From Planctomycetota bacterium (GTDB lineage Bacteria > Planctomycetota > PLA2 > JAEUHO01), in contig CBDCTJ010000007.1 of assembly GCA_965222115.1 (NCBI GenBank), forward strand, positions 2,560,001-2,624,000: a stretch of DNA of 64,000 nt, given 5' to 3'. The position numbers and the translations under genes are program-made. A model generated the notes under the pieces. That model did not search any database and had not been told where the DNA came from. It saw nothing but the letters and a program-made list of their open reading frames with translations. The stretch's first letter is position 1, and each line of letters opens with the position of its first letter. Below, one piece after another: positions 11,288 to 29,108 of the stretch.

Positions 11288-13456
11288 TTAGATTTCCGCC
11301 GAGGGTTGAGCCGCGCTCTCGCGCATCGCTTGCAACACATAGCGTGCGGCGTCTCGAATGTCCTTGTGCTCTCGCTTCCAGAACGTGGGAAAGGCGCCCC
11401 ACGAAAGCAGTTCGCGTAGCACGGGTTCGGCCAAACTGGCGTCGTGGGCGGCAAGCAAATGAATGGCCTGCAGACGCCGATGATGCATGTGGTCGAGGCC
11501 TTTGGCGCTGCGCACCACGTTGCACAGGGCCAGCGTGGACACACGCGACATCAAGGCGATCTGAGACTCGCTGGGCGTCGTGTCCAGGGCCGCGCGCAAC
11601 CACTCTACCGACCATGCCGATGGCTGATCCACGACTTTGAGCACGGAACGCAAGACGGATCGCGAGTCATGATGCTGCAAAAAATTGACAATGGCATCGC
11701 GGTAGCGCGAGCCGTCTACTCGGGCAAGCATGCTCACAAACGGTGTGCTGTCTATGTGACTCAGCGAGAAGATCAGCTCGGGTCGCGGATCGGATGCGAG
11801 ACCATCACCCAGGGTGAGTTGCTTTTCGGCCGTGAGCAATCGCTGCGGACCCAGCTGCTTGACAACATCGAGCAGCTCGCGCGATTCATCGGCGTTGGTT
11901 AGATCGAGGGAATCAAAGTAGGTGACAAAGTGCTTAGGGAACTGCGAAACGGCGTTGGCCGACGTCAAGACACCGAATTCACGCAGTAGGCGCGTGCGAT
12001 CGCCACGCCTGAAGAGTCGAAACAGGCGGTCCTGCGCCAGAATGCGTTCCTCAGGAAGGGGTTGATTACCGGCGTCTTCGTTTTCCGTGGCGTCTGACCA
12101 GAAGTAGTCCACGTACTGCCGCAGGACACCGCGCTCTTCGGGACCAAGATTGTCCAGCAGCGGATCCAGCGCATCGATCAGTGCGGTGGACTTGGCGCTC
12201 TCCTCCGCCGACACCAGGTAGTGCAACAAGACGCCGATCTGCTCGGCGCGAATATCCACCTCAACTGAGGAAATTGGCTTCACGCGTTCTTGGGGCAACT
12301 TCTCAAGTTCTTTGAGAAACGAAGCCACATCGTCGGTGATTTGGTCGTCGCCGGCGTGGCCGGCCCTCTTGGGGTCGTGTTCGACTTTTTCTTGTTTGGA
12401 CCAACGCTCGAAATGATTGCCGCCCAATACGGGGGCCGCACCGTCTACCCGCATGAAGAGTTGGCGCGATACCGAGGCGATCAAGGTACCCAGCGTGTTT
12501 TCGCTTAGCGCGTCCTCCAACTCGTTTGCTTCATCTTGCCAAACGATGCGGTCCTCAAGATTCTCAAGAACGCTTTCGGCAACCCGTCGCGCCGTATCTT
12601 CCGCTGCCAACAGGCGACTTCCCATGTGCTGCACAATGCGGCGGACAAGGCGCTTGCCGTCAATACTCAGTTCCGGGGCAATGTCGTCGTCGATCTCTTC
12701 CAACAACTCTTCGCGCATGCGATCAATCGACGCCTGCGATCGATCGGCAAACGGATCGGACGTGTCGGATGCGGCGGCTGCCTGAAGCGTGTCTTGGTTG
12801 TTCTTGTGAAAGCGCTCGATGAGCCACACACGCACAGCGACGTCGCGGCTCTCCCACAACGACCGCGCAAGACGGGACTCAGGCGTGTCTTCTTCGAGGA
12901 AAGCATCGCCGTCGCCCCACGAGCGTATCGGTTTGGCCTCTTCGAGTTCAACTTCGCGCTTGGACTTGGTGTCGCGGCGGAATCCTCCGGCAAAGCGACG
13001 TTGAATCAGTTCGATGCCGAGATAGCGTTCAGGCCATAGCGATCCAAATTCGCTGTCGCCACCAATGCGCATGTGATTGCCGAGCAGGCGTTTGGTGAAC
13101 GCCACCAAACGCTCTCGATCGACATCGGGCAAAAAGCCAACGCCAGCCAAGGCGCCGCGTTCCACGCGCGATCGTAGCCACGTCAGATTGGTGTTGGGGC
13201 GCGGCGTGTGCAGGTGTTGACCCAGAAGGACTTGACTCCCCGTAAAGATCACGCGCACATGACCACCGGCATCGGTGTGTCCGGCGGCACTCGATTCCGT
13301 CAAGGCTTGTTGCAGGGCGTCCAGGGCGCGCCCCACTCGCACATTGGCCTCGGGGTAGATGGCCATTGCTTTGGTAAAATCCGCCCAGCGCTCCGCTACG
13401 GCGAGCAGCGGTTTGGGCGGAGCGTCGGCAGGAGAAATGGTCTTGGGCAGATTCAT
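11288..13456 (-). CDS. Hypothetical helical protein (HEAT-like C-terminus), co-transcribed with the HD-GYP gene
   Basis: Long ORF; likely start ATG 13456 (MNLPKT). N-terminus resembles that of the HD-GYP neighbour; C-terminus REHKDIRDAARYVL is HEAT-like. Confidence 0.7.
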   Translation of the reverse strand: MNLPKTISPADAPPKPLLAVAERWADFTKAMAIYPEANVRVGRALDALQQALTESSAAGHTDAGGHVRVIFTGSQVLLGQHLHTPRPNTNLTWLRSRVERGALAGVGFLPDVDRERLVAFTKRLLGNHMRIGGDSEFGSLWPERYLGIELIQRRFAGGFRRDTKSKREVELEEAKPIRSWGDGDAFLEEDTPESRLARSLWESRDVAVRVWLIERFHKNNQDTLQAAAASDTSDPFADRSQASIDRMREELLEEIDDDIAPELSIDGKRLVRRIVQHMGSRLLAAEDTARRVAESVLENLEDRIVWQDEANELEDALSENTLGTLIASVSRQLFMRVDGAAPVLGGNHFERWSKQEKVEHDPKRAGHAGDDQITDDVASFLKELEKLPQERVKPISSVEVDIRAEQIGVLLHYLVSAEESAKSTALIDALDPLLDNLGPEERGVLRQYVDYFWSDATENEDAGNQPLPEERILAQDRLFRLFRRGDRTRLLREFGVLTSANAVSQFPKHFVTYFDSLDLTNADESRELLDVVKQLGPQRLLTAEKQLTLGDGLASDPRPELIFSLSHIDSTPFVSMLARVDGSRYRDAIVNFLQHHDSRSVLRSVLKVVDQPSAWSVEWLRAALDTTPSESQIALMSRVSTLALCNVVRSAKGLDHMHHRRLQAIHLLAAHDASLAEPVLRELLSWGAFPTFWKREHKDIRDAARYVLQAMRESAAQPSAEI

Positions 13457-13614
13457 CCGTGTCTCACGGCGACTGCGTATGCCGCCACTATTTCTTCGGC
13501 GGTTCCTCATTCTCGGTCGTAGCGGAAAGCCCACCGGTCGGCGTTTTTTAGTATTTTGTACGCCGATCTGGGCGCGAAGGCACAGAGCCCGTCCCCCGGA
13601 TCCTGAGGTTGCTC

Positions 13615-16212
13615 CTATGCGGCGCGAACGAATGCGTCGCGGATGCCTAAAACGTTCTCCCACCGACGGATGACGAGGTCCGCGAGGAAGAGGAGCAATG
13701 CGAGGCCCAGGCACAGGGGCACAAGGTCGCGCGTGCGTACGCGGCCCGCCGGTAGGGGGGCCATCGTGAGGTTGTCGTTTCCACGCAGCATGCCGCCACA
13801 GGTTGACACAATGCGATTTGCCAGGACTTCGTTGACCCGATTGGAGACGACTTCGGTCGATGTTTCATGGACGAGGCCTGCGGACACGATCTCGGCGCCG
13901 GCCCGCGCGCGAACGAGATAGATCCCAGGGCGGCTTGGGACAAACGAACCTCGATAGCGCCCGGGGCCCGCTTGAGCGAGCGTATCCTCCGACACCTTCT
14001 CCATGCTCGAGCCGAGGGCGCCACGCGGGACGTAGTAGATCGTTGCGCGCACGTCGGCCGCGTTCTTAAACGAAGCGGCGTCTTCTAAGAGGTCCACAAT
14101 GATCTGGGCCTTACCCGATTCGCGTGCAATGCGCACATCCATGGTGCGTCCCTGGGGATTGCGCGCCATTTCGCGCAAGACTTGGCCCCAGAATTGGCCG
14201 TAGCCTTCCCAGCCCGAAACCCATAGCGCAGCCCAACGTGATTTGCAATCCGACGTAAACGCCGTGACCTTCCCAAGTCCGTATCGCCAGTGAGCAAGCA
14301 GCGGGTCGCCAATATCGGTTACCAGTGGCACCTGGCTGGTGGCTTTGGGAAGCGTGCGAACGTAACCAAGGAGCGAAGGCGCTTGATCGGCGTCCCAACC
14401 CGCCAGCATGGCATGGCGTTCCACCTGCTGGGGCTTGAAGGCCTGCTCCCGTACCATCTTGCCCAAGTGGGTGGCCGCGTCTTGGCTGAAGATCTTCGGA
14501 ATGCTAGAGGGATCCACCGTGGCGTAGTGCTTTCCACCGCCCGCTTGCGCGATGCGTTGCAACAACTGATTGTCGGCGCCATGACCCACGCCCACGGCGG
14601 ACACGGTCATACCTTCTGAGTTCATCGTTTGTGCCAGTTGCTCGTAGCCGGCGCCTTGCGAGTGGCCGTCGGTCAACACGATCATGTGCTTGACGCGTGC
14701 GCGCGTGTTCTTGAGTCCCTCGTAGCCCATCGACATGCCGGGGTAAATGTTGGTGCCGCCGCCGGCCGACAACGAGGCGATGCGGCGCTCAATCTCGCCC
14801 TTACGACCCGCGCGCATTACGGGAACCACCCACGAGGCACTGCCTGAGAATGCCACCACGCCAATGTAGTCCTTGCGACTCAACATTTCGGACGTGCCAA
14901 TGGCTGCGGCTTTACAGATGTCGATTTTGCCGCCGCCCATGGACCCCGATCGATCGATGACGAGCACAAGCGCGGTTGAATAGCGCTCCTCTTTGTCAGG
15001 CGGTTGCATGCGAACGGGCAAGATGTCTTCAATGGCCGTTCTGTAGTACCCGCCAACGCCAAAGGAGTTGACGCCACCAATCATGAGAAAGCCACCGCCC
15101 AGCTGCTCGACGTAATCCTGAACGAGTGTCATGGTGCGTTCCGGGAGGCGAAATGCCGCTACATCGGAAAACACAATGCCATCAAATACCGCCAACTCTT
15201 CAAGCGATTGAGGAATCGACTCCGGAGGGCGCACAACGAGTCGAATGCCCTCTTCTTGCATAGCATCAGGCAAGAAGTGGCCCTGTTCCGCATCACCTTC
15301 CACCAACAAAAGAAGCGGGCGTCCGCGAACTTCAACCAACGCCATGGCTTCGTTGTTCTGCGGAATTTCGTCGGTGCGATCGTCTTCAAAGCGGGCCAAG
15401 TAACGATAGAGATTGCGCTCCTCGGGCGTACGCGAAAAGGTCACGTTGCCGTCTTCGCCCGCTTTGAGCGTGACGGGTTTGCTGGCGACTTGCACGCCGT
15501 TCTCAAAAAAGAGGACGCTGCCCTTCGTGTCGTAATTGCTTTGGAGCTCTACCGTAAATTTCAGCGTGGCGCCTTCATGCGATCGTGCTTTGCTCGAACG
15601 CAAACGCACAATGCGCGCATCGGGGCGAGCCTCACCCTTTACGGCCACTACGTCAACGACCACGCCGCCAATACCCAGATCGCGGGCCGCCTCTTCGGCG
15701 TCGCCCTGCGTCTCAACAGCATCACTTACGACAACGATGCGACGTGCCACACCGGGTGGAAATAGGCCGGCCGCGAGAGACAGTCCCGCCGACAGGTCCG
15801 TGGCATGGCCCTGATCGCGCTGAAAGGCATCGTCTGGTACAAAGGAGACAGCGTCCTTCGTGGGGGGAATTAACACTTTCGGTGAAGCGGCAAAGGCCAA
15901 TGCCCCAACAAAAGCACCATCGGGGATGTGATCGAGCAGCGTAGTGACGCGTTCGGTCGCTCGCCGTAGGCCGGCTTCCCCAAGGCTCTTGCTGTGATCG
16001 ACCAAGAAGATCACCGCTTGCTCTTCGCTCGTCTCGTCGACACTGGGCATGGCAAGTGCAAGGATCAACAACGAAAGAAGCGCGGAACGCACAATGAGCA
16101 GGAGTTTCTTACGCTCGGGGCTCATGGGGTGAACCGATCGCTTGGCGGCCCACATGACCAGCAAGACCGCGGGGACGATGAGCAATAGAAGCGCGGGATG
16201 TTCGAAGCTCAA
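13615..16212 (-). CDS. BatA-like N-terminus, two VWA domains and a glutamine amidotransferase-like domain; membrane protein
   Basis: FEHPALLLL N-terminus; MIDAS motifs VDHSKS and IDRSGS with GGGT and LTDG; GGGFLMIGG.NSFG.GGY; WRYGLGKV.AFTSD; C-terminal TM. Confidence 0.88.
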   Translation of the reverse strand: MSFEHPALLLLIVPAVLLVMWAAKRSVHPMSPERKKLLLIVRSALLSLLILALAMPSVDETSEEQAVIFLVDHSKSLGEAGLRRATERVTTLLDHIPDGAFVGALAFAASPKVLIPPTKDAVSFVPDDAFQRDQGHATDLSAGLSLAAGLFPPGVARRIVVVSDAVETQGDAEEAARDLGIGGVVVDVVAVKGEARPDARIVRLRSSKARSHEGATLKFTVELQSNYDTKGSVLFFENGVQVASKPVTLKAGEDGNVTFSRTPEERNLYRYLARFEDDRTDEIPQNNEAMALVEVRGRPLLLLVEGDAEQGHFLPDAMQEEGIRLVVRPPESIPQSLEELAVFDGIVFSDVAAFRLPERTMTLVQDYVEQLGGGFLMIGGVNSFGVGGYYRTAIEDILPVRMQPPDKEERYSTALVLVIDRSGSMGGGKIDICKAAAIGTSEMLSRKDYIGVVAFSGSASWVVPVMRAGRKGEIERRIASLSAGGGTNIYPGMSMGYEGLKNTRARVKHMIVLTDGHSQGAGYEQLAQTMNSEGMTVSAVGVGHGADNQLLQRIAQAGGGKHYATVDPSSIPKIFSQDAATHLGKMVREQAFKPQQVERHAMLAGWDADQAPSLLGYVRTLPKATSQVPLVTDIGDPLLAHWRYGLGKVTAFTSDCKSRWAALWVSGWEGYGQFWGQVLREMARNPQGRTMDVRIARESGKAQIIVDLLEDAASFKNAADVRATIYYVPRGALGSSMEKVSEDTLAQAGPGRYRGSFVPSRPGIYLVRARAGAEIVSAGLVHETSTEVVSNRVNEVLANRIVSTCGGMLRGNDNLTMAPLPAGRVRTRDLVPLCLGLALLLFLADLVIRRWENVLGIRDAFVRAA

Positions 16213-16261
16213 CTACATCCCTCCCAAAATCGGAGGTGCGCCATGGGTTGTTGTGTGGCCA

Positions 16262-18229
16262 TCAGAACATGCTCCAGCGATGAAAGAGCCACGCCTCGCC
16301 AATCAACAGCAAGAGCAAAATCCAAATCAGGTGCGGGCGCAAGTCGCCCTGAAACCATGAGGATCCTCCAACCGTTGCCTCGTGTTGCTCGACGTCGGTT
16401 TCGGCCGTTGGCGGCATCGTTTCTGAATGTGAGAGTAGCGCGGCACTGCCGCGACGATCCCCAACTTGCCAGGCGCCAACGGATGTAAGCTCCAGCAACG
16501 CGCCCGAAGCCGTGGCCTGCGTCTCCTTGAGTGCGCCATGTGCATCGGGAATCAACCAGCGGACGTCTCGTGCCCCGTCATTGGCATCTGCCACGTCGAG
16601 CACGTCTCCGGTACGTCGATAGGTTGAGCGGGTTGGATCGTCGTCTTTCTGGCAACACCAAAGAATTGCGTTGCCGAGTAGCAGCGGGTAAGCGGGCGTA
16701 AACGGTAAGGACTCAGAACGCTCCGCGGAGAATCCCATGACCACAACGCGTTGCCCACGAACATCACCGGCGACAAGGAGCGGGCCGTTCGGGCCAAGCC
16801 ATAGCGGCGTCATGGGTCCGTCGCCCTCGAGCACTGTGGTTTGCGTGAGCGCCACGCGTTCGCTGGCAACGCCATAGAGCAATGGATGATCCTGGTTGAT
16901 TGCCCGCAGGTGATCTACCGGAAGACCGTCGCCCGACAGTGCTGCCGCTTCAATGGGTCCTATGGACCCCGTGGGACGCAGCACAATCGCCGGGACGTTC
17001 GTTGGCCACGTAGGCGGCAGCCATCCGTCAAAGAGCACCACGTCAACGTCGTCGCCCACTGGCTTTTCCGCGTAGGGCCACCCCGCGGGCTCCATTTCGA
17101 ACCCCTCGACTTCGCCGCCATCCATGAACGATTGCAACGCAATCTGTGTGAACGGATCGGGGTTGTCTCGCACCCACAGCACATTGAGGGGCTTACGTGG
17201 AGGCAGAGGCGCGACGACGCGGTTGTCGGACGCCAGTGCGTCGCCGGGTGTCTTTAGGTGGAACTGAACCGTATCGCCCGCTTGCCCTTCAATGGGAATC
17301 ATCAACCGAACGGGTTCGCCGGGTGGAATCGATACCTCGCGAAGTGCAACCAGTTCTTTGTCGAGGCGCACGTCCAACGAACAGGCGAGCGGCTTGTCAT
17401 CGGTACCCTGTCCGCGCAATTCAACGAAGGCTTCAAAGCGCCCGTGTTCAAGCGGAAGCGGTCGCATAGAAAACGCCGTAATGCCGGCATTGACGACTGC
17501 CGTGTCACCAATCACAAGTTGCGCGAATTCTACATCGTCCGAAAGGCCGAAATAGTGTTCTAGCGACAGTGCCTTCGGCTCCTGATCGGGTGCGTCAGTG
17601 CCTTCGATTGCAGTGCCTGAGGATTCACGTTTCGGCATGGCGAACGAGCGATCCGAAATGTGTAGAATCCGTGCGGGTTTCACCATACCCGCCAGTCGCC
17701 CAGCAAGTCGGAGGGCGCGTTCGGGATCACCGGCAACCGGTCGCGTTTCAAGCCCTCGGAGCGCCCGGCGAAATTCGCGCCGATCCAAACTGTGGGGCAC
17801 CAAAATTTCGGGCCGCTTGTCGTAACGCATAAGCAAGAGACTCGTGCCCGCGCCCAACGCAGCGATCCGGCGTTCGATTTCCTGCTTGGCCGCGTCCATG
17901 CGCGTGCGTCCTTCTGCGTCTTTCATGGCCATGGAGGCGGAGCCATCCAACACAACCACCATGCCGTTCCAACTTCCCGCCGCGGGTGACGCGATGAGTC
18001 GGCTCAATCCAAAGACGATGCACGCCAACGTAAGCACGGCAAAGAGCACGGCGAGCAGCTTCTTTAGCCGACGCAGCCAGGGCGACTCTTGGTACACCAC
18101 CGCCAACGACTTGAAGAAGGGTAGTGTGCTCACGCGCACGCGTTGGGGGCGACGCTTGAACACAAATAGCAAGATCGCCGGAACGATCAACCAAAGCAGA
18201 GCAAGTAGGGCGGGTGAAGCGAATCGCAT
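16262..18229 (-). CDS. BatA-domain/VWA-domain membrane protein
   Basis: MRFASPALLALLWLIVPAILLF (BatA-like), VLDGSASM MIDAS, DAL.SDN motif, C-terminal TM LIWILLLLLIGEAWL. Confidence 0.85.
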   Translation of the reverse strand: MRFASPALLALLWLIVPAILLFVFKRRPQRVRVSTLPFFKSLAVVYQESPWLRRLKKLLAVLFAVLTLACIVFGLSRLIASPAAGSWNGMVVVLDGSASMAMKDAEGRTRMDAAKQEIERRIAALGAGTSLLLMRYDKRPEILVPHSLDRREFRRALRGLETRPVAGDPERALRLAGRLAGMVKPARILHISDRSFAMPKRESSGTAIEGTDAPDQEPKALSLEHYFGLSDDVEFAQLVIGDTAVVNAGITAFSMRPLPLEHGRFEAFVELRGQGTDDKPLACSLDVRLDKELVALREVSIPPGEPVRLMIPIEGQAGDTVQFHLKTPGDALASDNRVVAPLPPRKPLNVLWVRDNPDPFTQIALQSFMDGGEVEGFEMEPAGWPYAEKPVGDDVDVVLFDGWLPPTWPTNVPAIVLRPTGSIGPIEAAALSGDGLPVDHLRAINQDHPLLYGVASERVALTQTTVLEGDGPMTPLWLGPNGPLLVAGDVRGQRVVVMGFSAERSESLPFTPAYPLLLGNAILWCCQKDDDPTRSTYRRTGDVLDVADANDGARDVRWLIPDAHGALKETQATASGALLELTSVGAWQVGDRRGSAALLSHSETMPPTAETDVEQHEATVGGSSWFQGDLRPHLIWILLLLLIGEAWLFHRWSMF

Positions 18230-18238
18230 GCCTAGGAA

Positions 18239-19156
18239 CTAGGCGCCTGCTAATGCGCTGCCCTTGGACAGTAGATCCAAGAACGCGCCTTCAAAGGGCG
18301 CTTCGGTGTTCCACAAGCTGTAGGCCACCTGCTTTTGCATACAGAACTGGCGTAGGTCCTCCACAAAGGCATCAAACGCGTTGGTGTATCGTTCCATGTC
18401 ACGTTTGTTGAGATGGATTCGACGCATTTCACCGGTCTCAACGTCCACCAATTGCAACTCGCCTTCCAGGCGCGGGCGGAGTTCGAGCGGATGCAGAAAC
18501 TGCACGACGTGAGTTTCCGCAGGCCAATGAAGCGCGCTCCGTAAGGATTCACGTGCCTGCGAGGGGTCGAGACTCAGAAGATCACTGAGCACAAAGACGA
18601 TGCCCTTGCGGCCCTGCCCCGGGCGAAACGCACGCAGGCACGAGAGATTGGTTTCACCTTGAAACGATAGGCCCGATAAGTGGTCGAGCACCTTGTGAAT
18701 GTGACCTTGGCCTTTGAGCGGGGGCGTGGCAATGTCAAGCGTGTCACCGAAGGTGCGCAGCGATACGCGGTGTTGGTTCATCAACGCGAGATAGGCGAGC
18801 GCAACGGCGAGCCGCAGCGACATGACGCGCTTCTCGGGGTGGGGCTCAATCATGGACGCCGAGCGGTCCAGCAGAATGTGAACGTGAAACTCTTGAATCT
18901 CTTCGAAGAGCTTTACATACAGCTTGTCCATGCGGGCATACAGCCGCCAATCGATACTTCGAAAGTCGTCGCTGGAGGTGTAGGAGCGGTAGTCCTTGAA
19001 CTCACGTGTAAATCCAAGTGCCGTGGTTTGTTCAGCGCCCTTTTTCTGAAGTTGGCGGCGCTTGCGTAGCTTGAAGAAGAGCGTACGGAGACGTCGCAAA
19101 AAGTCGGCATCAAAGAGCTGCTCGTCACTCGCATTGTCACTTACATAGTCACTCAT
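18239..19156 (-). CDS. DUF58 domain protein
   Basis: EFKDYRSY...DDFRSIDWRLYAR.DKLYVKLFEE, LLDRSASM, VLSD. ATG 19156 overlaps the upstream stop. Confidence 0.92.
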   Translation of the reverse strand: MSDYVSDNASDEQLFDADFLRRLRTLFFKLRKRRQLQKKGAEQTTALGFTREFKDYRSYTSSDDFRSIDWRLYARMDKLYVKLFEEIQEFHVHILLDRSASMIEPHPEKRVMSLRLAVALAYLALMNQHRVSLRTFGDTLDIATPPLKGQGHIHKVLDHLSGLSFQGETNLSCLRAFRPGQGRKGIVFVLSDLLSLDPSQARESLRSALHWPAETHVVQFLHPLELRPRLEGELQLVDVETGEMRRIHLNKRDMERYTNAFDAFVEDLRQFCMQKQVAYSLWNTEAPFEGAFLDLLSKGSALAGA

Positions 19157-22100
19157 CGCGGGTCCCCGTACCGCGCGATCCCGACTTTGGATCTGCCTTT
19201 TGTGTGGGCATTTCCAAGGCAACAACTTCGCTGTACGAACGCGTGGTGTAGAGCGCGCTCGGGTCTACAACCATTACGCGCGTGGCGCGAAGGTCGGTGG
19301 CTGTACTGCCGGTCTGCTGAATTACGGGGGGCTGGTAGTAGGGCATGCGGTAGCCGCGCCGCATCATCATCATGCGCGAACGATGCTGGGCCATAGCGAG
19401 CCTACTTTTGGCCGACGATTGGGCGTTTACCACGCCGCGGAACAGATAACGCAATCGCGGCGCCGCTTTGCGCTTCTTTCGTGTGCGGCCCCAGGCATCT
19501 ACGGTTTCTTCGTAGGCGTCATCCTCGTCTATGGCGAGTTCATGGGGCCATGGGACGTCCGCTACCGTGGTGCCGCTCTCCACGTGAATCGTTAGGATGC
19601 GCTCATCGCCTGCGGCATACACGTATCCATCCACATACGTGGCTCGGATCGGGTGATCGTTCGCGAAGTCTTTATCAAAGGCGATGAGGCGACGATTGCC
19701 GGTGATTGGATGTAGGCGCGTGATGCCCTTCTCACTGAGGAAGAGCAAGTGCTGCTGGTGCCGGCCCATGTACACGCCTGGCATTTCGTCGTGGACGTGC
19801 GTTCGGAATGGCTCACGAATGCTGGCGACCGTCAATGTGCCCTTGGCGGGCGCCGTTGTTTCAAGCGAATCGCGAAACAGGAGCAGGGATTCGTCTTCGA
19901 TGAGCCCCTTACGTTTTTGGTTGCCGATAAGCGGCGATCCCCAGTGGGCAACGGTCGCCACAGGATGCAACGTCGATGCGGATGACGCCGCGCTCCACGC
20001 GGGTGGCGGCGCGCCGAAGTGAGAACCCATGTAGATCGGGGTGCCGGAACTCGAATAAATCATGGGCGGGCTGCTCGCAAACGGCGAAGAACCGCCGCAG
20101 CTACCGCCGCACGACAAGCCTGAGGAGAATGATGAATAGATGGGGCCGCCCATGGGCATCCCACCGCCAAAGAGCGGCGAGGAGAACAAGGAGGACCAGC
20201 CGCCGCGACCACCACCGTCTTCGCGCTCGGGCTCTTTGAGTTCCACGGGTACGGAGCGAACCTTACTTGGGTCAAAGCGCCACAAGTGGTGTCCATCCGA
20301 TGCGTCGAGCACAAAGGTGTGTTTTCCGAACGCCAAGATGTGGTCGCCCTGTACCGAGAGACCTGAATTGGTGGCATGGGCGCCATCGGCCGCGTCCCCA
20401 AGTTCGTGCCACCACTTGACCTTGCCGTGAGCCGGCTCAATACAACGAATCTCTTCGGAATAGGCGTCGAACACAATGAGCCCATGCGGTGACGTCGCAA
20501 TGTGCACCGGACCGTGGTCGGCCACAATTCGCCACGCCAAGTTTCCGGCTTCATCGTAACACTCGACATTTGGACCGCGCACGAGTGCCACGCGATTGCT
20601 GGCGGGCAGCGCGACTTGACTTTCGCTCGTCACGGAACTCGGTAGTGTCCAGGTGAGCTTGCCCGACGCGCGATTCAAGCAATGCATCGCACCGTCGCTT
20701 GTAGTCAACAGCAGTCGCGCGTTGCCAAACCCAAGCAGCGCCGTGGGCCGACTGTCGTAGAGTTTGAATACCCAGCGCACCCGATCGGCGCCTGCCGGAC
20801 CTGCCCCGACACCCTTGCCCGTATTGGCGGCATTCGGCTTCGTGCTAGCGGGCGTGCCGTTGGTCCCCAAGTCGGCCATTCTCTCCAGCCCTTGCCACGA
20901 GGCGGCCAATCCATCGGGAAACGCAATCCACTCAGACTCATCGCCCATGGCCAACGTGTTCGCTCGCTTGCGTGACGGTTTGTTGTCGCGCGTCTTGGTC
21001 GTCCGACCGGCTTCTTCGCTTTGAAGGGTGCGAAGTTCCTTGAGTGTTTCTAAGGCATCGGCCTTTGCCTTTGTTCGTCCCAGGCGACCCAGTGCGTAAA
21101 CGCGAGACCAGCTCTGCCAAAGCGGGCGGCGGGTTGGGGGATACAAGCGTTCTGCTCGGTCAAGCGTGCTCAATGCCTGAATGAACTCGCCTTCATGTCC
21201 CCGACGAAATGCAGCGGATACACCGCGCCAGTAACTGTCGGATAGGTGTTCTCGCAGTAGGCGACGGGTTTCATTGGCAACCGGCATGCGTGGTATTCCA
21301 CGCAGAAGTCGCCGTAGCGTGCGGCGGAGTTTGTCCTCGTCGCCAACGGCTACAAGCGTGGTGATCCAGCGCTCCCAGTTGGAGCGACGCTCGGGTTCGG
21401 CCTGGGTGAGCCGCTCATAGATGCTTAACAGGCGCTCGTAGTCATTGAGTTGGCGGTAGGGGCGAGCGAGACGTGCCAAGAGCTCGGCGTCGCCGATCTT
21501 GGAAACATCCAGCGACTCGAGGTGCTTCTCAGCGCGTGGGTAGTCACGTTCATCAAAGTAGACCAACGCCAAACGCGCTTTGTATTCTTCGGCGTGATCG
21601 GTGTCGTCCTCGATAAGCGACTCAAGTTCCGCGCCGGCAAGTACGGAGTGGCGGGAATTGCGTTCTAGATGCAGCGCGAGATGTCGCCGCAAAGCAAGGG
21701 CTGCTTTCTCGGGTGGATTGCCTGCTAGCAACTCTTCTACCAGGGCACGTGCTTCGGCAATCCGGTAGCGGCGCGAACTCACGTCAAGAAACGCAGCGAT
21801 GCGGTCGACGCGCGTGCCATCCCAAGCACCGGTCTCTTGGGCGAGGCGGACCTGTTCTTGTTCCAAGAACTTGCCCGATTCGGCATACGATGCGGCAAAG
21901 TCGGTGGCAAGTGTAAGCCACCGTCGATAGCGCGCCGGGGAGTCGGCCAGACGACGAAGATCAAGGACAAGTCGTGCGCCACTACGAGGTCGAATCAAGT
22001 AGCCGCGAACTTTGAGTAGGGCCAAACCAAGTGCGAAGTGCTCGGGTTGTTTGGCGTGACGCTCCATGAGTGCGCGTTCGGCTTGCCGAAAGTGGCCCGC

Positions 22101-23672
22101 CTCCATCATGAAGTTCATGAGGTCTAAGAACTCATCGTTGCCAACGGCATCGGGGATGGGACGAACCATGAGGCGGTGTAGCGCCGCGCGGTCTCGTTGT
22201 GTGCGAAGCATTTCACCGAGTTCACGCAAGACGGCCGCGCGCTCGGGTGCCAAGTCGAGCGCGCGCATAAAGAGCGTAACGCTCGGCTTGGGGCGATTGT
22301 TTCCGCGTAAGAAACGTGCCATATCGAGCAGCCGCGAGACCTGCTTGTCGCTCGGAAGATTGGCAATGGCCTTTTCGAACTCCGCGGTGGCGTCTTTCGT
22401 GCGACGCAACAAGAACAGCGCGCGAATATGGCGATCGACGAGATCGTCGCGGCTAGGAAATTTCTCAATTCGTGCTTCGAGGTATTTGACGCGACGGCGT
22501 ACATCGCCCAAGTGATCGAAGACGTCCAGCGTTTCCTTTTCGAGCTGGGCCGAGTTGGGCATGCGCTTGGATGCATCAAGCAGTACGGTCAAGGCCTCGC
22601 GATGGCGATCGAATCCACGTAACATGCGCGCCAAGTCAAGGGCCACGGTATCTCGATTTGGGTGGTCGGCAACCGCTCTGCGCGCCGCGTCGAGCATGGT
22701 GTCGCGTTCGCCTTCGGATGCAATCAACCGTTGGCGCATGGTGAGCACTTCGGAGCGACGCCAATGATCGGCCGTCAATCGAGTCAGCAGCTTGTCGAGT
22801 CGATCGCGCGCGGCTTTGCTTCGGCGAAGCGATATCTCGCTAACCGCGGACAGCAACTCGATATCAATAATGGTCTCCGGCGAGGGTCCCGCCCCCGCGG
22901 CCTGCGTCAATACCTCTAACGCCTTCTCGTGCAGTCCAAATGAAGCAAGGCGCTTGGCCGCGCGCACCTTGCCCTCTGCCCGCGGACCTTGGATGTCGAT
23001 CATGGTCTTAACGTGGCGCTTGGCCACGTCGCGGCGATCGTCTTCCAAGGCGAGTTTGAGCAGCTTTTCAATCCACTTGGCGCGAGCCCGAGGATCGGTA
23101 CCAAACTCGACGGCCTTGTCGAGTGCGTCAATCGCCTTTGGATCGCCCGCCTCGTGCAAGTGTTCGAAGAGCAAGTAGTGCAGGTAGCCGCTCTTTGGGA
23201 ACACGCGCAGCGCTTCGCGCACCTGGTTGGCTGCCTCCGGATCGTTGATCGACGAAAGCAGCCGCACATAGACAATGCGCCCCGCTTCATCGTTGGGATA
23301 TACCGTGGTGTGTTGCCGGTACATGCCGACCAACCGATCGACCTCGCCGGCCTTTTGATACATCTCAAGCAATCGGGCGAAGAGTGCGTCCTGCGTTGGG
23401 TATTGTTGGAGGCGCGCGCGAAACTCCAGACTCCGCTCGTCCAAGCTCTGAGTTGCTGCACCCGTGTCGCGCTTGTCGATTTCTGCCGTCTTGTCCTCTT
23501 TGTTGTCTTCTTCGGCGAAGACCGTTGGGGTGAAGCGCAAGGCCTCGCCACCGCCAAGGGCGAATAGAACCAGCACAAGCCAAAGTAGAGAACGCGCCCC
23601 GCGCCAGCGCATCGAATGCGATGGGGACGACATGGCGGCACGCGACCGGTCGGTGCGTCGAGCACGGTACAT
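19149..23672 (-). CDS. Large secreted TPR-repeat plus PQQ-type beta-propeller protein
   Basis: Signal-peptide-like LLWLVLVLFALGG; long helical-repeat region; propeller motifs LNRASGKLTW, GNLAW, GKVKW, DASDGHHLW; G/S/P-rich insert containing SCGGSCGG. Confidence 0.75.
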   Translation of the reverse strand: MYRARRTDRSRAAMSSPSHSMRWRGARSLLWLVLVLFALGGGEALRFTPTVFAEEDNKEDKTAEIDKRDTGAATQSLDERSLEFRARLQQYPTQDALFARLLEMYQKAGEVDRLVGMYRQHTTVYPNDEAGRIVYVRLLSSINDPEAANQVREALRVFPKSGYLHYLLFEHLHEAGDPKAIDALDKAVEFGTDPRARAKWIEKLLKLALEDDRRDVAKRHVKTMIDIQGPRAEGKVRAAKRLASFGLHEKALEVLTQAAGAGPSPETIIDIELLSAVSEISLRRSKAARDRLDKLLTRLTADHWRRSEVLTMRQRLIASEGERDTMLDAARRAVADHPNRDTVALDLARMLRGFDRHREALTVLLDASKRMPNSAQLEKETLDVFDHLGDVRRRVKYLEARIEKFPSRDDLVDRHIRALFLLRRTKDATAEFEKAIANLPSDKQVSRLLDMARFLRGNNRPKPSVTLFMRALDLAPERAAVLRELGEMLRTQRDRAALHRLMVRPIPDAVGNDEFLDLMNFMMEAGHFRQAERALMERHAKQPEHFALGLALLKVRGYLIRPRSGARLVLDLRRLADSPARYRRWLTLATDFAASYAESGKFLEQEQVRLAQETGAWDGTRVDRIAAFLDVSSRRYRIAEARALVEELLAGNPPEKAALALRRHLALHLERNSRHSVLAGAELESLIEDDTDHAEEYKARLALVYFDERDYPRAEKHLESLDVSKIGDAELLARLARPYRQLNDYERLLSIYERLTQAEPERRSNWERWITTLVAVGDEDKLRRTLRRLLRGIPRMPVANETRRLLREHLSDSYWRGVSAAFRRGHEGEFIQALSTLDRAERLYPPTRRPLWQSWSRVYALGRLGRTKAKADALETLKELRTLQSEEAGRTTKTRDNKPSRKRANTLAMGDESEWIAFPDGLAASWQGLERMADLGTNGTPASTKPNAANTGKGVGAGPAGADRVRWVFKLYDSRPTALLGFGNARLLLTTSDGAMHCLNRASGKLTWTLPSSVTSESQVALPASNRVALVRGPNVECYDEAGNLAWRIVADHGPVHIATSPHGLIVFDAYSEEIRCIEPAHGKVKWWHELGDAADGAHATNSGLSVQGDHILAFGKHTFVLDASDGHHLWRFDPSKVRSVPVELKEPEREDGGGRGGWSSLFSSPLFGGGMPMGGPIYSSFSSGLSCGGSCGGSSPFASSPPMIYSSSGTPIYMGSHFGAPPPAWSAASSASTLHPVATVAHWGSPLIGNQKRKGLIEDESLLLFRDSLETTAPAKGTLTVASIREPFRTHVHDEMPGVYMGRHQQHLLFLSEKGITRLHPITGNRRLIAFDKDFANDHPIRATYVDGYVYAAGDERILTIHVESGTTVADVPWPHELAIDEDDAYEETVDAWGRTRKKRKAAPRLRYLFRGVVNAQSSAKSRLAMAQHRSRMMMMRRGYRMPYYQPPVIQQTGSTATDLRATRVMVVDPSALYTTRSYSEVVALEMPTQKADPKSGSRGTGTRDE

Positions 23673-23677
23673 AGACA

Positions 23678-24790
23678 CTACTCCGCGGCGTGGCTGGGAG
23701 CCGGGGTCTCACGAATCAAGGTGTCGATCAAATCATCCACATTGAGCGACTCGGCTTCACCTTCGAAGTTGAGAATGATGCGGTGGCGCAACGCGGGTTT
23801 GGCCGCGCGACGTACGTCGTCAATGGAGACCGCCGTGCGACCGTCGAGTAGGCAGTACACGCGGGCCGCTCGTATAAGCGTCTGCATGCCTCGTGGGCTG
23901 GCGCCATAGGCCACCATGCGCTTGACCTGCTCGTTGCCGTCGCCATCGGGATGGGTACTCAAAACCAGGGACGCGGCATACGTGGCAATGGGATCGGCCA
24001 CCGGCACATGCGTAATGAGCTGTTGGAAGCGCGTGAGATCGTCACCCGTCATCACCGTATCCACATCCGGCTCCACAAAGCCTGTGGTGCGGCGTGAGAT
24101 TTCGACCAACTGCTCTTTGCTGGGGTATCGCACACGCAACTTGAAAAAGAATCGGTCAAGCTGTGCTTCGGGAAGCGGATAGGTGCCTTCCATCTCCAGT
24201 GGATTTTGCGTTGCGAGCAAGAAGAAGGGCGCTGGTAAGTCGAACTGATCACCGCCCACCGTGACGCGTCGCTCCTGCATGACTTCCAATAGGGCGGCTT
24301 GCGTCTTGGGCGTGGCTCGGTTGATTTCATCGACGAGCAGCAAGTGTGTAAAAACGGGTCCCTTTTCAAATCGGAAGGAGCGATGCCCTCGATCGTCTTC
24401 ACTCACAATGTGGTTACCCAGAATGTCGGCAGGCATGAGATCGGGCGTGCACTGAATGCGACCAAAGCCGAGTTCAAGCACACGGCCCAACATGCGCACC
24501 AAAAACGTCTTACCGAGTCCGGGCACACCTTCTAAGAGCACATGACCGCCACTAAACACACCAATGAGCACGTCGCGAATGAGTTCGTCGTGGCCGACGA
24601 CCGCGCGTTGCATCTGCTTGAGCGTGTTTGGGAAGGTGGTGCGGAAGTGTTCAAACTCGGATGCGAGCGCTTTGGCGTCCTGGCCTTCAAACGCATCGCG
24701 CATCCCAGTGGCGGACGCAGTCGCGCTCGCCGAGGCCGTTCCACCTACGGGCACATCCCCGCGCCCCTCACTCGTCTGCGGGTCACTCAT
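23678..24790 (-). CDS. moxR: MoxR family AAA+ ATPase
   Basis: LLEGVPGLGKT, RIQCTPDLMPAD, LLVDEINRATPKTQAALLE, ATQNPLEMEGTYPLPEAQLDRF, YGASPR. Confidence 0.95.
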   Translation of the reverse strand: MSDPQTSEGRGDVPVGGTASASATASATGMRDAFEGQDAKALASEFEHFRTTFPNTLKQMQRAVVGHDELIRDVLIGVFSGGHVLLEGVPGLGKTFLVRMLGRVLELGFGRIQCTPDLMPADILGNHIVSEDDRGHRSFRFEKGPVFTHLLLVDEINRATPKTQAALLEVMQERRVTVGGDQFDLPAPFFLLATQNPLEMEGTYPLPEAQLDRFFFKLRVRYPSKEQLVEISRRTTGFVEPDVDTVMTGDDLTRFQQLITHVPVADPIATYAASLVLSTHPDGDGNEQVKRMVAYGASPRGMQTLIRAARVYCLLDGRTAVSIDDVRRAAKPALRHRIILNFEGEAESLNVDDLIDTLIRETPAPSHAAE

Positions 24791-24793
24791 GGC

Positions 24794-26812
24794 TTAGCGT
24801 CCTTCTTCTTTGGCGCGCGCAGGTTGCCCGGCTTCCGACCCAGGGTCTTCCAACCGACGGCGTAGTTCTGTGAAGTATCGAAGCACTTGTTCACGGCGCG
24901 ACAGGGGTATGGGGTCATCGGCCAGTGCTTCTTCTTGTGCCTTTAAGAACTCCACCGTGATGTCTTGCACCGAACGCGACGAGCCCTCCGAACGCGGTTG
25001 GCCATCGATGTCGCGGGTTGTGCTTGGGCCGGCGCCGCGAGGAGCCACGCTAATGCGTTCTTCGCGATTGGCGCGCGAACCGGGGCGCGTGCCCCCGCCC
25101 ATAGGTGCCGATCCTGAACCGGCACTGTTGCTGCTTGAGTTGCTCTGTGAGCCACTCTGTCCACCTTGACCGGGGATTACGCCTGCGCCAGAACTTGAGG
25201 AGCTACCTGCTCCTGAGCCGGAACCACTTCAGGTTCCGCCTGGGCCGCTCTTTCAGGTGCCGCCGGGTGATGTGCCCGGAATGGGGGCGCCGCCGCGTCG
25301 TCCTTTGTTGCCGGTCCCCGGTGTAGGGGTTCGCCCGCTCCGCGAGCGTCCACAGTTCGGTCAGCACGGTCCTTGATTGCCGGGTGGTGGTTGGGTGCCC
25401 GGCGTGGGGGTTGAGGACGATTGATGACTGTTGTAGCGACGATTGTTCTTGGGCTGATTGCGCTGATAGGACGAGTAGCGCCGCGTCAATGGAATCGGCT
25501 GATTTGAGTTGTTGTTGCGCAACGACTTGAGGTTGCGATTCGCGGTCATGGTTGTGAGCTGTTTCATGGTGCGGCCCGACTTGCCAAGCGCGCGCTGCCC
25601 CGATGCCCGCAGATTGCGTGCGAGACGACGAAGTTGATTGCGCATACGAAGTCGATTGGCCGCCTTTTTGTACTTGCGCGCCAGTTCACGGAGTTCGCGT
25701 GAGGCCCCCTTGGCGTCTTTGGCATCCAGTCGCTTCTGCGCCGCCGCCAAATGGCGACCCAAGGCAGTCTTTAGATCCTTGGCCGAAGCCTTCTTGAGTC
25801 CCGCGGCGAACGCAGTCGAAATCCTCGCGCGTTCTTCATGGGTGAGTTTGTCGGATGCCAATCGTTCGGCGAGCTTGAGCGCTTCGGCCGAGGCGCGCTT
25901 CATGTCTTCGGCGCGAAGTGCACCGGCGAGCGCTGCGGTGTCGGCATGTCGCTCCAACTCGGCCAACAGCGCGGAACTTACCTTTTCGCCCATGGCCTTA
26001 AGCCCGGCCGCCAGCTTTTCTGCTTCGCGTGCTTGCTTCTCAAGGGCTTCGAGCACCTTTCGAGACGACTGCTTCTCCTTTTCCTTCATCTTCTCGGCAC
26101 TGGCCTTCATTTCTTTCTTGAGATCGTCGAGTGCTTTGGCTTCTTCGGGCGTGAGAGCCTTCTTCTCGTCTTCGAGACGCTTCGCTTCGTCTTCCATGGC
26201 GGTGGCGACGTCGGTGGCATCAACCGTGCGGTCTTCAGGTGCAGAAATCTTGTCGATCACAACAATCGAGAGTGCAACGGCACAGAAGAGGGCCGGAGCA
26301 AGCAAGCTCGAGAGCGGTGCGCGCAGCGGTACATACGTGGACACCTTGGTACGCGCTTGATCCAGGGCTCGCGTAGCGCGTTCCATGTGGAGCATCTCGC
26401 CGGCATCGGTCGGCATACCTCCAGCGCGACGCTCAAAGGCATGGGCTGAAAGTAGGGTTTCGCCGGTTCCTGCGCTGCGGTCAACCAGTGCCAATGCAGA
26501 TGCGGGCGACGGTCTACGCAGAAGGCTGTAAAACAAACACGCCAAGGCCCAGACACCTACGGCCAACACACAGATTGCGACGCGCGCAAAGGCGGATTCC
26601 GGCGCCCAGGGGTGACCGAAGATACGGCTAAGCACTACCAGGACGGCCAGCGCGCCAAAAACGGGCCATGCACTGGCGCGAAGGGATCGGAACCAGTCTC
26701 GAAGCAAAAGCCTCGAAGCAAGGCGTTCACCAAACGCCGTAAACGGTCCTCCTACGGTTGCGTTCGATATGACGCGGTGCGCATCGGCTTGTGGTGTGGT
26801 TGGATTGTTCAT
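24794..26812 (-). CDS. Membrane-anchored coiled-coil protein, putative selenoprotein with three in-frame UGA codons (672 aa; U484, U520, U528)
   Basis: ORFs 25361..26812 and 24794..25102 share a frame. The gap contains only TGA stops (25361-63, 25253-55, 25229-31) and reads GPC*PNCG...PGGT*KSGPGGT*SGSGSG...APMGGG. The distal part ends in EEALADDPIPLSRREQVLRYF, a C-terminal motif typical of such MoxR-operon proteins. A hairpin follows each TGA. Confidence 0.75.
25198..25214 (-). promoter_or_regulatory. Candidate bacterial SECIS hairpin for UGA 25229-31
   Basis: AGGAGC-AGGUA-GCUCCU (6 bp, loop at +21, G second). Confidence 0.62.
25215..25250 (-). promoter_or_regulatory. Candidate bacterial SECIS hairpin for UGA 25253-55
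   Basis: CGGAACC-UGAAGU-GGUUCCG (7 bp, loop at +22, G second) with a lower GAGC/GCUC stem. The loop contains the third UGA. Confidence 0.6.
25336..25348 (-). promoter_or_regulatory. Candidate bacterial SECIS hairpin for UGA 25361-63
   Basis: CGCUC-GCG-GAGCG; loop starts with G at +18 after the UGA. Confidence 0.55.
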
Positions 26813-29104: not shown

Positions 29105-29108
29105 GTGG

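Follow-up and report, generated by a model that had tools for sequence, protein, structure and literature searches.

A candidate membrane selenoprotein with several in-frame UGA codons in a Bat-like MoxR operon of Planctomycetota

Introduction

Among the bacterial selenoproteins made through SelB and a selenocysteine insertion sequence (SECIS) hairpin, those with UxxC or CxxU motifs (selenocysteine thioredoxin, DsbA-like and AhpD-like proteins; PMC13188914, Table 1) combine a UGA codon and a hairpin at the usual distance with a pair of Cys and selenocysteine (Sec, U) in a CxxC motif. The same combination is found in a gene lying directly upstream of moxR in 64,000 nucleotides of a Planctomycetota genome (assembly GCA_965222115.1, contig CBDCTJ010000007.1, positions 2,560,001 to 2,624,000; this whole stretch is called the window, its positions are used throughout, and its genome is referred to as G000). 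The gene is interrupted by three in-frame TGA codons, and the comparisons described here suggest, with a probability of about 0.87, that it is a single gene for a 672-amino-acid membrane protein in which all three are read as Sec. As with the described proteins, the genome has the full Sec machinery and the Sec forms make up a derived clade among non-Sec homologues. In contrast to them, the motif is not embedded in a thioredoxin-like fold or any other known one; it lies in a disordered Pro/Gly/Ser linker, the protein itself being helical and membrane-anchored. Each chain would carry two to four Sec residues, and the selenoprotein models of Pfam and NCBIfam are unmatched. The Sec residues would thus be placed in a flexible part of a structural membrane protein rather than in the active site of an enzyme.

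Proteins with more than one Sec are also known, including a UxxU metal-binding protein, MbdU, and an arsenite methyltransferase/AhpD fusion with three Sec residues (PMC13188914). As in these proteins, more than one UGA would be decoded per message, and the Sec residues may be metal ligands. Table 1 of this 2026 review lists 119 prokaryotic selenoprotein families with at most three Sec per protein, whereas two orthologues of the window gene (in genomes G365 and G406) have four candidate Sec codons and, if these are decoded as proposed, would exceed every entry of that inventory. Furthermore, a repeat unit here places some of the UGAs 7 to 8 codons from one another. Each has a hairpin of its own, and the following UGA is enclosed in the hairpin of the one before. 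No entry of that table has this architecture or the GGT-U motif described below, and the review's text does not mention Planctomycetes; if the proposed decoding is correct, a selenoprotein family would be added in a phylum absent from that text.

Other searches gave a similar picture. The read-through protein has no Pfam match at E ≤0.01, its two natural open reading frames (ORFs) have none at E ≤10, and the sole NCBIfam match was a chance 16-bit aspartate kinase. Full-text literature searches returned no paper that links Sec with MoxR or Bat operons or describes such a family, and Table S9 of PMC4807772 (Planctomycetes selenoprotein candidates) and Table S2 of PMC13326102 are supplements that could list it. 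A first-pass annotation, made from the letters of the window alone, had known of no described selenoprotein family of this type, and none was matched in Pfam, NCBIfam, or the 119-family inventory. As far as checked, the novelty lies in the protein family, in how many Sec residues it has and where, and in the nested tandem hairpins, while the recoding mechanism is a known one.

For the neighboring genes, the closest comparison is with the Bat (Bacteroides aerotolerance) operons, which likewise contain a MoxR protein of the AAA_3 type, a DUF58 protein, a BatA-N plus VWA protein, a second VWA protein, and a TPR protein. Bat proteins were suggested to act as reductants of periplasmic proteins or as exporters of reducing power; in Leptospira, this was not borne out, and no oxidative-stress phenotype was seen (PMC3557215). 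The suggestion, itself unproven, would be compatible with a redox-active Sec arm. MoxR–VWA pairs elsewhere remodel complexes and insert metals (PMC13036017). The selenoprotein candidate matches no Bat family, and the operon adds two large paralogues without a family and a 1509-amino-acid TPR/β-propeller protein. A selenol/thiol arm would give a chemical handle on Bat-like MoxR–DUF58–VWA operons, the function of which has been open since their description in Bacteroides.

A second type of MoxR locus, the MoxR–vWA–β-propeller ternary systems (Kaur et al. 2020, PMC7159879), shares with the window the occurrence in Planctomycetes, a TPR plus β-propeller component, and extra α-helical proteins without a known superfamily. 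However, the P-loop of the window MoxR is an ordinary GVPGLGKT rather than the GXXXTAKS variant often present in those systems as described there, and the protein scores 41.8 bits on the bpMoxR model compared to a far better 198 bits on AAA_3. No vWA protein with a C-terminal β-propeller was identified, and Pfam shows no propeller in either VWA protein of the window. By their domain matches, DUF58 and BatA point to the Bat type instead of the ternary type.

A third comparison concerns one of the Sec sites. In the Rad50 zinc hook, a CPxCG metal knuckle bridges coiled-coil proteins. The family described here likewise has one C-P-x-C-G motif (CPNCGRP, CPICGRP, or CPQCGQP, with U-P-N-C-G in the window) after a long helical region, and by analogy two chains could together hold one metal ion. 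In contrast to Rad50, the motif lies in a disordered linker instead of a coiled-coil apex, and it is absent from most of the family.

A single frame with three UGA codons

The gene lies on the minus strand and runs from ATG 26812 to the TAA at 24796–24794. Its frame contains three internal stops, all of them TGA (codons 484, 520, and 528; Table 1), has no TAA or TAG, and can be read to its end without a frameshift, just as the first-pass annotation had described it. Translated through, it yields 672 amino acids with the segments ...GPC-U-PNCG..., ...PGGT-U-KSGPGGT-U-SGSG..., and a C-terminal ...DPIPLSRREQVLRYF..., so that the linker and C-terminal motifs reported earlier were found again.

Low-complexity DNA of this kind could be misassembled or misread, and the assembly does have indel-rich stretches (the end of contig C1, with four gaps in 328 nt against contig C7, and a frameshifted selD gene). 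Logan contigs from three public runs, which represent two samples of one study and possibly the source sample of the genome itself, nevertheless cover positions 25082–25767 with no differences and no gaps, all three TGAs included. Since these contigs agree base for base and five separately assembled species have TGA at the same sites, an error is excluded for practical purposes and its chance is negligible.

Conservation of the UGA codons

Searches of 401 genomes of the phylum and 40 genomes of the order gave matches in 28 and 8 genomes, respectively; homologous proteins and loci are numbered here with P and L, and five of the genomes (G365, G352, G324, G407, and G406) carry the orthologues with TGAs. 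Together with the window, they represent six GTDB species of one Planctomycetota family with 18 in-frame linker TGAs at homologous places. The five relatives belong to another genus and share only 42–43% identity with the window protein. The window gene has three TGAs, one at site 1 (C-U-PNC) and two in GGT-U copies. Four TGAs are present in both G365 and G406, which have CPT-U at site 1 and three GGT-U copies, and three in G407, with CCPT-U and two copies. G352 and G324 have two TGAs, both in GGT-U copies, and Cys at site 1 (CPGCPNC). GGT-U is therefore conserved in all six genomes.

Site 1 is of the CxxC type, with U-P-N-C-G in the window and C-P-T-U or C-P-x-C-G in relatives, and the other two sites of the window are G-G-T-U repeats. 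The alignment column of site 1 holds U in G000, P0003, G365, G406, and G407, and Cys in G352, G324, P0005, P0018, P0009, and P0007. Proteins of the same clade from metagenomes read CPNCGRP, CPICGRP, CPGCEKC, or CPGCPNCGRP here. The Cys of this column belongs to CPGC-PNC in G352, G324, and P0005 and to CPNCG in P0018. On this alignment, Sec is paired with Cys at site 1, in a motif of the CxxC type.

If the TGAs were real stops, the product would have 483 amino acids (about 520 in the relatives with Cys at site 1), and the distal part would be untranslated, a relic, or made separately, for example from ATG 25102. Gene callers do terminate ORFs at these TGAs (P0002–P0018), the AGGA that the first-pass annotation had noted 9 nt ahead of ATG 25102 is present, Cys or Sec in the linker is dispensable for most of the family, and some truncated product is likely even with Sec insertion. 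However, the distal domain is as conserved as the remainder of the protein, with 43–51% identity between the window and the TGA-bearing orthologues and 34–48% between the window and distant single-ORF homologues; that it evolves like the rest of the protein argues that it is translated. The last UGA is followed by the QEEALA motif after 98, 94, 104, 108, 113, and 96 codons in the six genomes, six lengths that all keep the frame, and the stretches between the TGAs of the orthologues still read as homologous protein. No ATG, GTG, or TTG between the last UGA and QEEALA is conserved among the six genomes. Separate translation would need no maintenance of the frame, and a relic would have gained frameshifts and TAA or TAG codons. 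Termination at the TGAs is for these reasons improbable. The internal start at ATG 25102, which the first-pass annotation had kept as a caveat, was rejected because this ATG is not conserved and the orthologues have no conserved internal start.

Reading of the TGAs as Sec would also explain the databank entries of the family, which gene callers systematically truncate: at least nine called ORFs end at a Sec codon, seven of them at ...GGT and two at ...GPC. The C-terminal tail of one further entry, P0011 (575 amino acids), is a +1-frame reading of the GGT-TGA region, so that the underlying contig is frameshifted, in reality or by error, just before the Sec codons.

Hairpins downstream of the UGA codons

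Bacterial SECIS searches with bSECISearch expect a loop 16–37 nt away with G at its start. Along these lines, a hairpin was counted when it had a perfect or G-U-containing stem of at least 5 bp, an energy of −7 kcal/mol or lower, a loop start 16–37 nt from the U, and G in the first two loop bases. Sixteen of the 18 in-frame UGAs are followed by such a hairpin, and all sixteen loops start 19–27 nt from the U. In the window, each of the three TGAs has a hairpin with G in the first two loop positions, as claimed in the first-pass annotation; of the loop starts given there, +22 and +21 were recovered (the first base after UGA being +1), and the first loop was found at +20 instead of +18. Counted from the U, the three loops start at 22, 24, and 23 nt, compared to 23, 23, 20, and 24 nt in the Prx gene, two TlpA-like genes, and selD of the same genome.

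The hairpin after the last UGA keeps its position in the six genomes with four different stem sequences, so that the distance is conserved while the stem sequences differ. In the GGT-U region, the hairpin that would serve one UGA holds the following UGA within its 5′ arm. Both hairpins are recovered by RNAalifold, and 5 of 15 pairs have a compensatory change; such changes occur in the consensus hairpin of the six genomes after UGA 3. In G352, G324, and G407, the stem has 8–9 bp, in which the partner of the UGA is a serine codon, UCA, located four codons further along. The hairpins after the site-1 Cys codons of G352 and G324 are inconsistent and carry no information. A scan of 24700–25500 against Rfam at E ≤10 gave no SECIS family and only a chance snoRNA match.

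Selenocysteine machinery and other selenoproteins of the genome

The genome of the window encodes the components needed for Sec insertion. ARAGORN found one tRNA-Sec, the sole tRNA with a UCA anticodon among 50 tRNAs, and the Rfam model gave it 71.6 bits (cut-off 47). The genes selB (346.6 bits), selA (480.7 bits), and selD (150.6 bits, of the Sec type) each scored above the curated cut-off. Other selenoprotein genes of the genome have TGA at the catalytic site, namely Prx (FTFV-U), two TlpA-like proteins (GTG-U-KPC and GTT-U-GPC), and SelD (GG-U-AAK). The Prx and TlpA-like loci (C7:2272665-2273063, C3:119856-120200, and C7:2028037-2028303) have one in-frame TGA each, with a hairpin loop 20–23 nt from the U. 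A search for FdhA found no Sec-type form in the genome. With machinery, homologues, hairpins, and reads all in favor of it, the multi-Sec interpretation proposed in the first-pass annotation is supported.

These data also bear on the possibility that the UGAs are read through as something other than Sec, whether by near-cognate suppression with Trp, Cys, or Arg, by a local decoding as a residue like Gly, or by frameshifting at ACC-UGA-A. The GGT-U sites lie in Gly/Ser-rich sequence that would tolerate many residues, firm Cys counterparts in the same column exist at site 1 only, and the sequence just ahead of the UGA (ACC-UGA or ACG-UGA) is conserved, as it is in some recoding sites. Nevertheless, no tRNA other than tRNA-Sec has a UCA anticodon, TGA is an ordinary stop that terminates 414 of the 1514 ORFs of at least 400 codons, the positions and G-rich loops of the hairpins match those of the genome's own selenoprotein genes, and site 1 has the classical exchange of Cys and Sec within a CxxC motif. 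Insertion of a different residue is thus highly improbable. Two specific forms were rejected: genome-wide reassignment of TGA, given the long ORFs that terminate in it, and the frameshift model, given that the genomes with two, three, and four UGAs all stay in frame 0.

The wider family and the origin of the TGA forms

Searched without a profile, a set of 1.84 billion representatives yielded 190 relatives at E ≤0.001, and 86 at E ≤1e-30. The C-terminal motif is contained in one uninterrupted ORF in 117 of the 160 proteins compared, and every more distant locus whose contig reaches this motif has no internal stop. A search of a protein atlas with the 483-amino-acid ORF returned solely unnamed Planctomycetota clusters.

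A FastTree phylogeny was built from the N-terminal parts of 79 rows, with the linker left out. A single clade of 14 rows (support 94) takes in all 11 rows whose sequence stops at a U site. This clade contains no full-length row and is nested among the single-ORF forms; its other three rows are P0044, P0006 (which ends in ...PPGKT), and P0011. One change of state suffices on this tree. Because the U-site rows form a single nested clade, Sec use is, according to this phylogeny, a single and derived innovation.

Cys is present in the linker of 20 of the 116 full-length representatives, in the recurring contexts x-C-PVPG, PGT-C-PGG, PGT-C-SSSG, and PGGT-C-AGGT. The last two closely resemble GGT-U-SSSG and GGT-U-SG, a likeness of context in low-complexity sequence rather than a secure alignment column. 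Dense Cys clusters also occur in the linkers of single-ORF homologues, such as C-E-S-C-E-G-K-G-C-A-E-C in L081 (JANQEJ010000250.1) and a stretch of 14 residues with four Cys in P0067; in such proteins, the linker seems to have been enriched in Cys independently.

Points that weigh against Sec insertion

Several observations weigh against reading the UGAs as Sec. First, chance could account for the pattern in the window sequence taken by itself. Over the stretch that separates the first TGA from the C-terminal domain, two stops occur in each of frames +1 and +2 compared to three in frame 0, which is no more open than the others; Gly/Ser/Pro-rich DNA of 59% G+C tends to be open in several frames. 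A single sequence is therefore not significant, and the weight rests on the comparison of genomes. There, the 18 UGAs come from related genomes of about four lineages and are hence not independent.

Second, Gly, Ser, and Pro codons form hairpins easily. Among sense codons of the linker at a distance of over 10 codons from any UGA, 148/646 passed the wide criterion (16–37 nt), as did 312/1095 codons in the linkers of ten non-Sec homologues and 35/414 real TGA stops of long ORFs in the genome, so that 23–29% of the linker controls and 8% of the real stops pass. With the narrow window (19–27 nt), the corresponding counts are 56/646, 119/1095, and 19/414, or 9–11% of the linker controls and 5% of the real stops, but this window was picked after the data had been seen and the sites are related, and no exact probability is attached to the comparison. 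Two of the 18 UGAs are without a qualifying hairpin, site 1 of G407 (−6.6 kcal/mol) and the first GGT-U of G406 (−4.2 kcal/mol).

Third, the Cys look-alikes of GGT-U in single-ORF homologues, PGGT-C-AGGT (P0037), GGT-C-PIPG (L056), and PGT-C-SSSG (P0083), are likenesses of context in low-complexity sequence that give no firm alignment column. The linker has no Cys at all in 96 of the 116 full-length representatives, and the Sec cluster is thus a lineage-specific addition instead of the core or a family-wide essential site.

Fourth, work in E. coli leads one to expect a low efficiency when three or four UGAs are read in series. Fifth, the selD gene (C1:654443-655201, within C1:652943-655637) has several frameshifts, with its canonical Sec codon (GG-U-AAK) present. 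At most 1.2 kb separate this gene from the end of contig C1. The C1/C7 junction splits selA, and the two contigs overlap there, the final 328 nt of C1 matching the start of C7 at 98.8% identity. Given the indel-rich overlap, the frameshifts are probably errors at a poorly polished contig end rather than marks of a pseudogene. The relatives G365 and G324 have an intact selD of the Sec type.

Predicted product and mechanism of decoding

In the proposed decoding, each UGA would be read by the standard bacterial route, in which Sec-tRNA(Sec) is brought by SelB bound to a hairpin with its loop about 20–22 nt past the UGA. After decoding of UGA 2, its hairpin, which contains UGA 3, would be unwound, and the second hairpin would then serve UGA 3. 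Closely spaced UGAs with their own hairpins, each next UGA being buried in the previous hairpin, would make a natural test case for serial recoding by the ribosome and SelB.

The product would consist of three N-terminal membrane helices as an anchor, a long helical region, the flexible Pro/Gly/Ser linker with the Sec residues, and a small C-terminal domain of two helices. A crude hydropathy scan gives three hydrophobic segments (Table 1), in line with the three helices predicted in the first-pass annotation. The flank before helix 1 has 47 Lys/Arg compared to 14 Asp/Glu (summed over nine homologues) and the stretch after helix 3 is acidic, a crude positive-inside count which suggests that the N-terminus is inside and the C-terminus outside. 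Everything past helix 3, including the linker and its selenols, would then probably be outside the cytoplasm. The region rich in Glu, Lys, and Ala is, to judge by its composition, probably α-helical or a coiled coil. For the distal ORF of 102 amino acids (16 sequences), AlphaFold2 placed helices at residues 45–61 and 67–85 with a low mean predicted local distance difference test score of 61.5. Sequence searches of PDB gave nothing meaningful with the C-terminal alignment (E 0.84) or with the 483-amino-acid ORF (E 0.056).

The Sec residues may serve in redox chemistry, metal binding, or cross-linking. The selenols would sit on a flexible arm and take part in redox exchange or bind soft metals, the arm belonging to a conserved membrane complex centered on the MoxR ATPase and the DUF58 and BatA/VWA proteins, and the CPxCG-like knuckle might bridge two chains.

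A more speculative proposal, regarded as unlikely but worth stating, is that the GGT-U sites are a self-propagating Sec cassette. Its unit would be 21–24 nt long and encode S-G-S-G-G-T-U, with the UCA serine codon pairing with the UGA, and every tandem copy would contribute one more Sec codon while also providing the preceding copy with its SECIS hairpin. The number of GGT-U copies already varies from two to three among the species. In G365 (L024, 3025–3064), Tandem Repeats Finder called a 21-nt unit in 1.9 copies with 84% matches that encodes T-U-S-G-S-G-G. This repeat accounts for the third GGT-U in G365 and G406, since a tandem copy of the unit yields a further Sec codon together with the hairpin of the one ahead of it. 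Each 21-nt unit of the L024 repeat forms a hairpin by itself. Run on the window, the program called no tandem repeat. The GGT-U region could serve as a test case for the multiplication of Sec codons through tandem duplication.

As part of the same doubtful proposal, the serial UGAs would let selenium supply set the ratio between a truncated membrane anchor and the full-length protein with its C-terminal domain. Since the full-length stop (TAA 24796–24794) lies 3 nt before the ATG of moxR, selenium supply might perhaps also set translational coupling into moxR. In that case, the whole MoxR–VWA machine would respond to selenium or to the redox state.

Genomic context

The gene is flanked downstream by moxR and five further genes and upstream by two paralogous genes (Table 1). 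The order of the gene for the 799-amino-acid protein, the homologue of the selenoprotein candidate, moxR, and the gene for the TPR plus β-propeller protein is kept in 27 of 29 loci. Because the AAA_3-type moxR, the DUF58 gene, and the BatA-N/VWA gene stand in one operon, their domain assignments identify it as a Bat-like MoxR operon. The 799- and 772-amino-acid proteins have no match in Pfam or NCBIfam even at E ≤10.

Table 1. Features of the selenoprotein candidate gene and its operon (positions in the window)
Feature	Position	Strand	Remarks
Whole read-through coding sequence	24794..26812	-	672 codons + TAA; GAGG a few bases before ATG 26812; orthologues share the single frame
Hydrophobic segment 1, ~aa 43-61	26630..26686	-	Kyte-Doolittle scan (crude)
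Hydrophobic segment 2, ~aa 80-98	26519..26575	-	Kyte-Doolittle scan (crude)
Hydrophobic segment 3, ~aa 168-190	26243..26311	-	Kyte-Doolittle scan (crude)
Long Glu/Lys/Ala-rich region, ~aa 195-440	25493..26230	-	From alignment; holds AELERHAD, the family's most conserved block
Low-complexity Pro/Gly/Ser/Asn/Gln linker, ~aa 441-590	25043..25492	-	PxPGT repeats; all three candidate Sec codons inside
UGA 1 (U484)	25361..25363	-	Context C-U-P-N-C-G
Hairpin after UGA 1	25332..25348	-	7 bp; loop GGA at +20; -9.8 kcal/mol
UGA 2 (U520)	25253..25255	-	Context P-G-G-T-U
Hairpin after UGA 2	25219..25238	-	7 bp; loop UGAAGU at +22; -11.2 kcal/mol; UGA 3 within loop and 5′ arm
UGA 3 (U528)	25229..25231	-	Context G-G-T-U-S-G-S-G
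Hairpin after UGA 3	25198..25214	-	6 bp; loop AGGUA at +21; -8.6 kcal/mol
Conserved C-terminal domain, ~aa 591-672	24797..25042	-	Ends in two helices around ...EEALA-DPIPLSRREQVLRYF...; 34-51% identity to 15 homologues
moxR (AAA_3 + AAA_lid_2)	23678..24790	-	P-loop GVPGLGKT; AAA_3 198 bits, bpMoxR model 41.8 bits
Operon downstream of moxR, overall	11288..23678	-	Five genes
1509-aa TPR + PQQ β-propeller protein	19149..23678	-	TPR_14 and PQQ_2 matches
DUF58 gene	18239..19225	-	Domain match
BatA-N + VWA gene	16262..18229	-	Domain match
VWA + GATase1_like gene	13615..16212	-	Domain match
808-aa protein	11288..13714	-	No family
Two paralogous upstream genes, 799 aa and 772 aa	26855..31427 (26855-29254, 29109-31427)	-	799-aa type precedes the homologue in most loci

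The ORFs of the two upstream paralogues overlap by 146 nt as listed, and the start of one of them is therefore probably further in. On the other side, the operon is tightly packed: the stop of moxR and the start of the 1509-amino-acid ORF share base 23678, and this ORF overlaps the DUF58 ORF by 77 nt (19149–19225). Outside the window, contig C6 of the same assembly (48,116 bases) has 39.7% G+C compared to 55–59% in the other six contigs, and may be a plasmid, a phage, or a binning contaminant.

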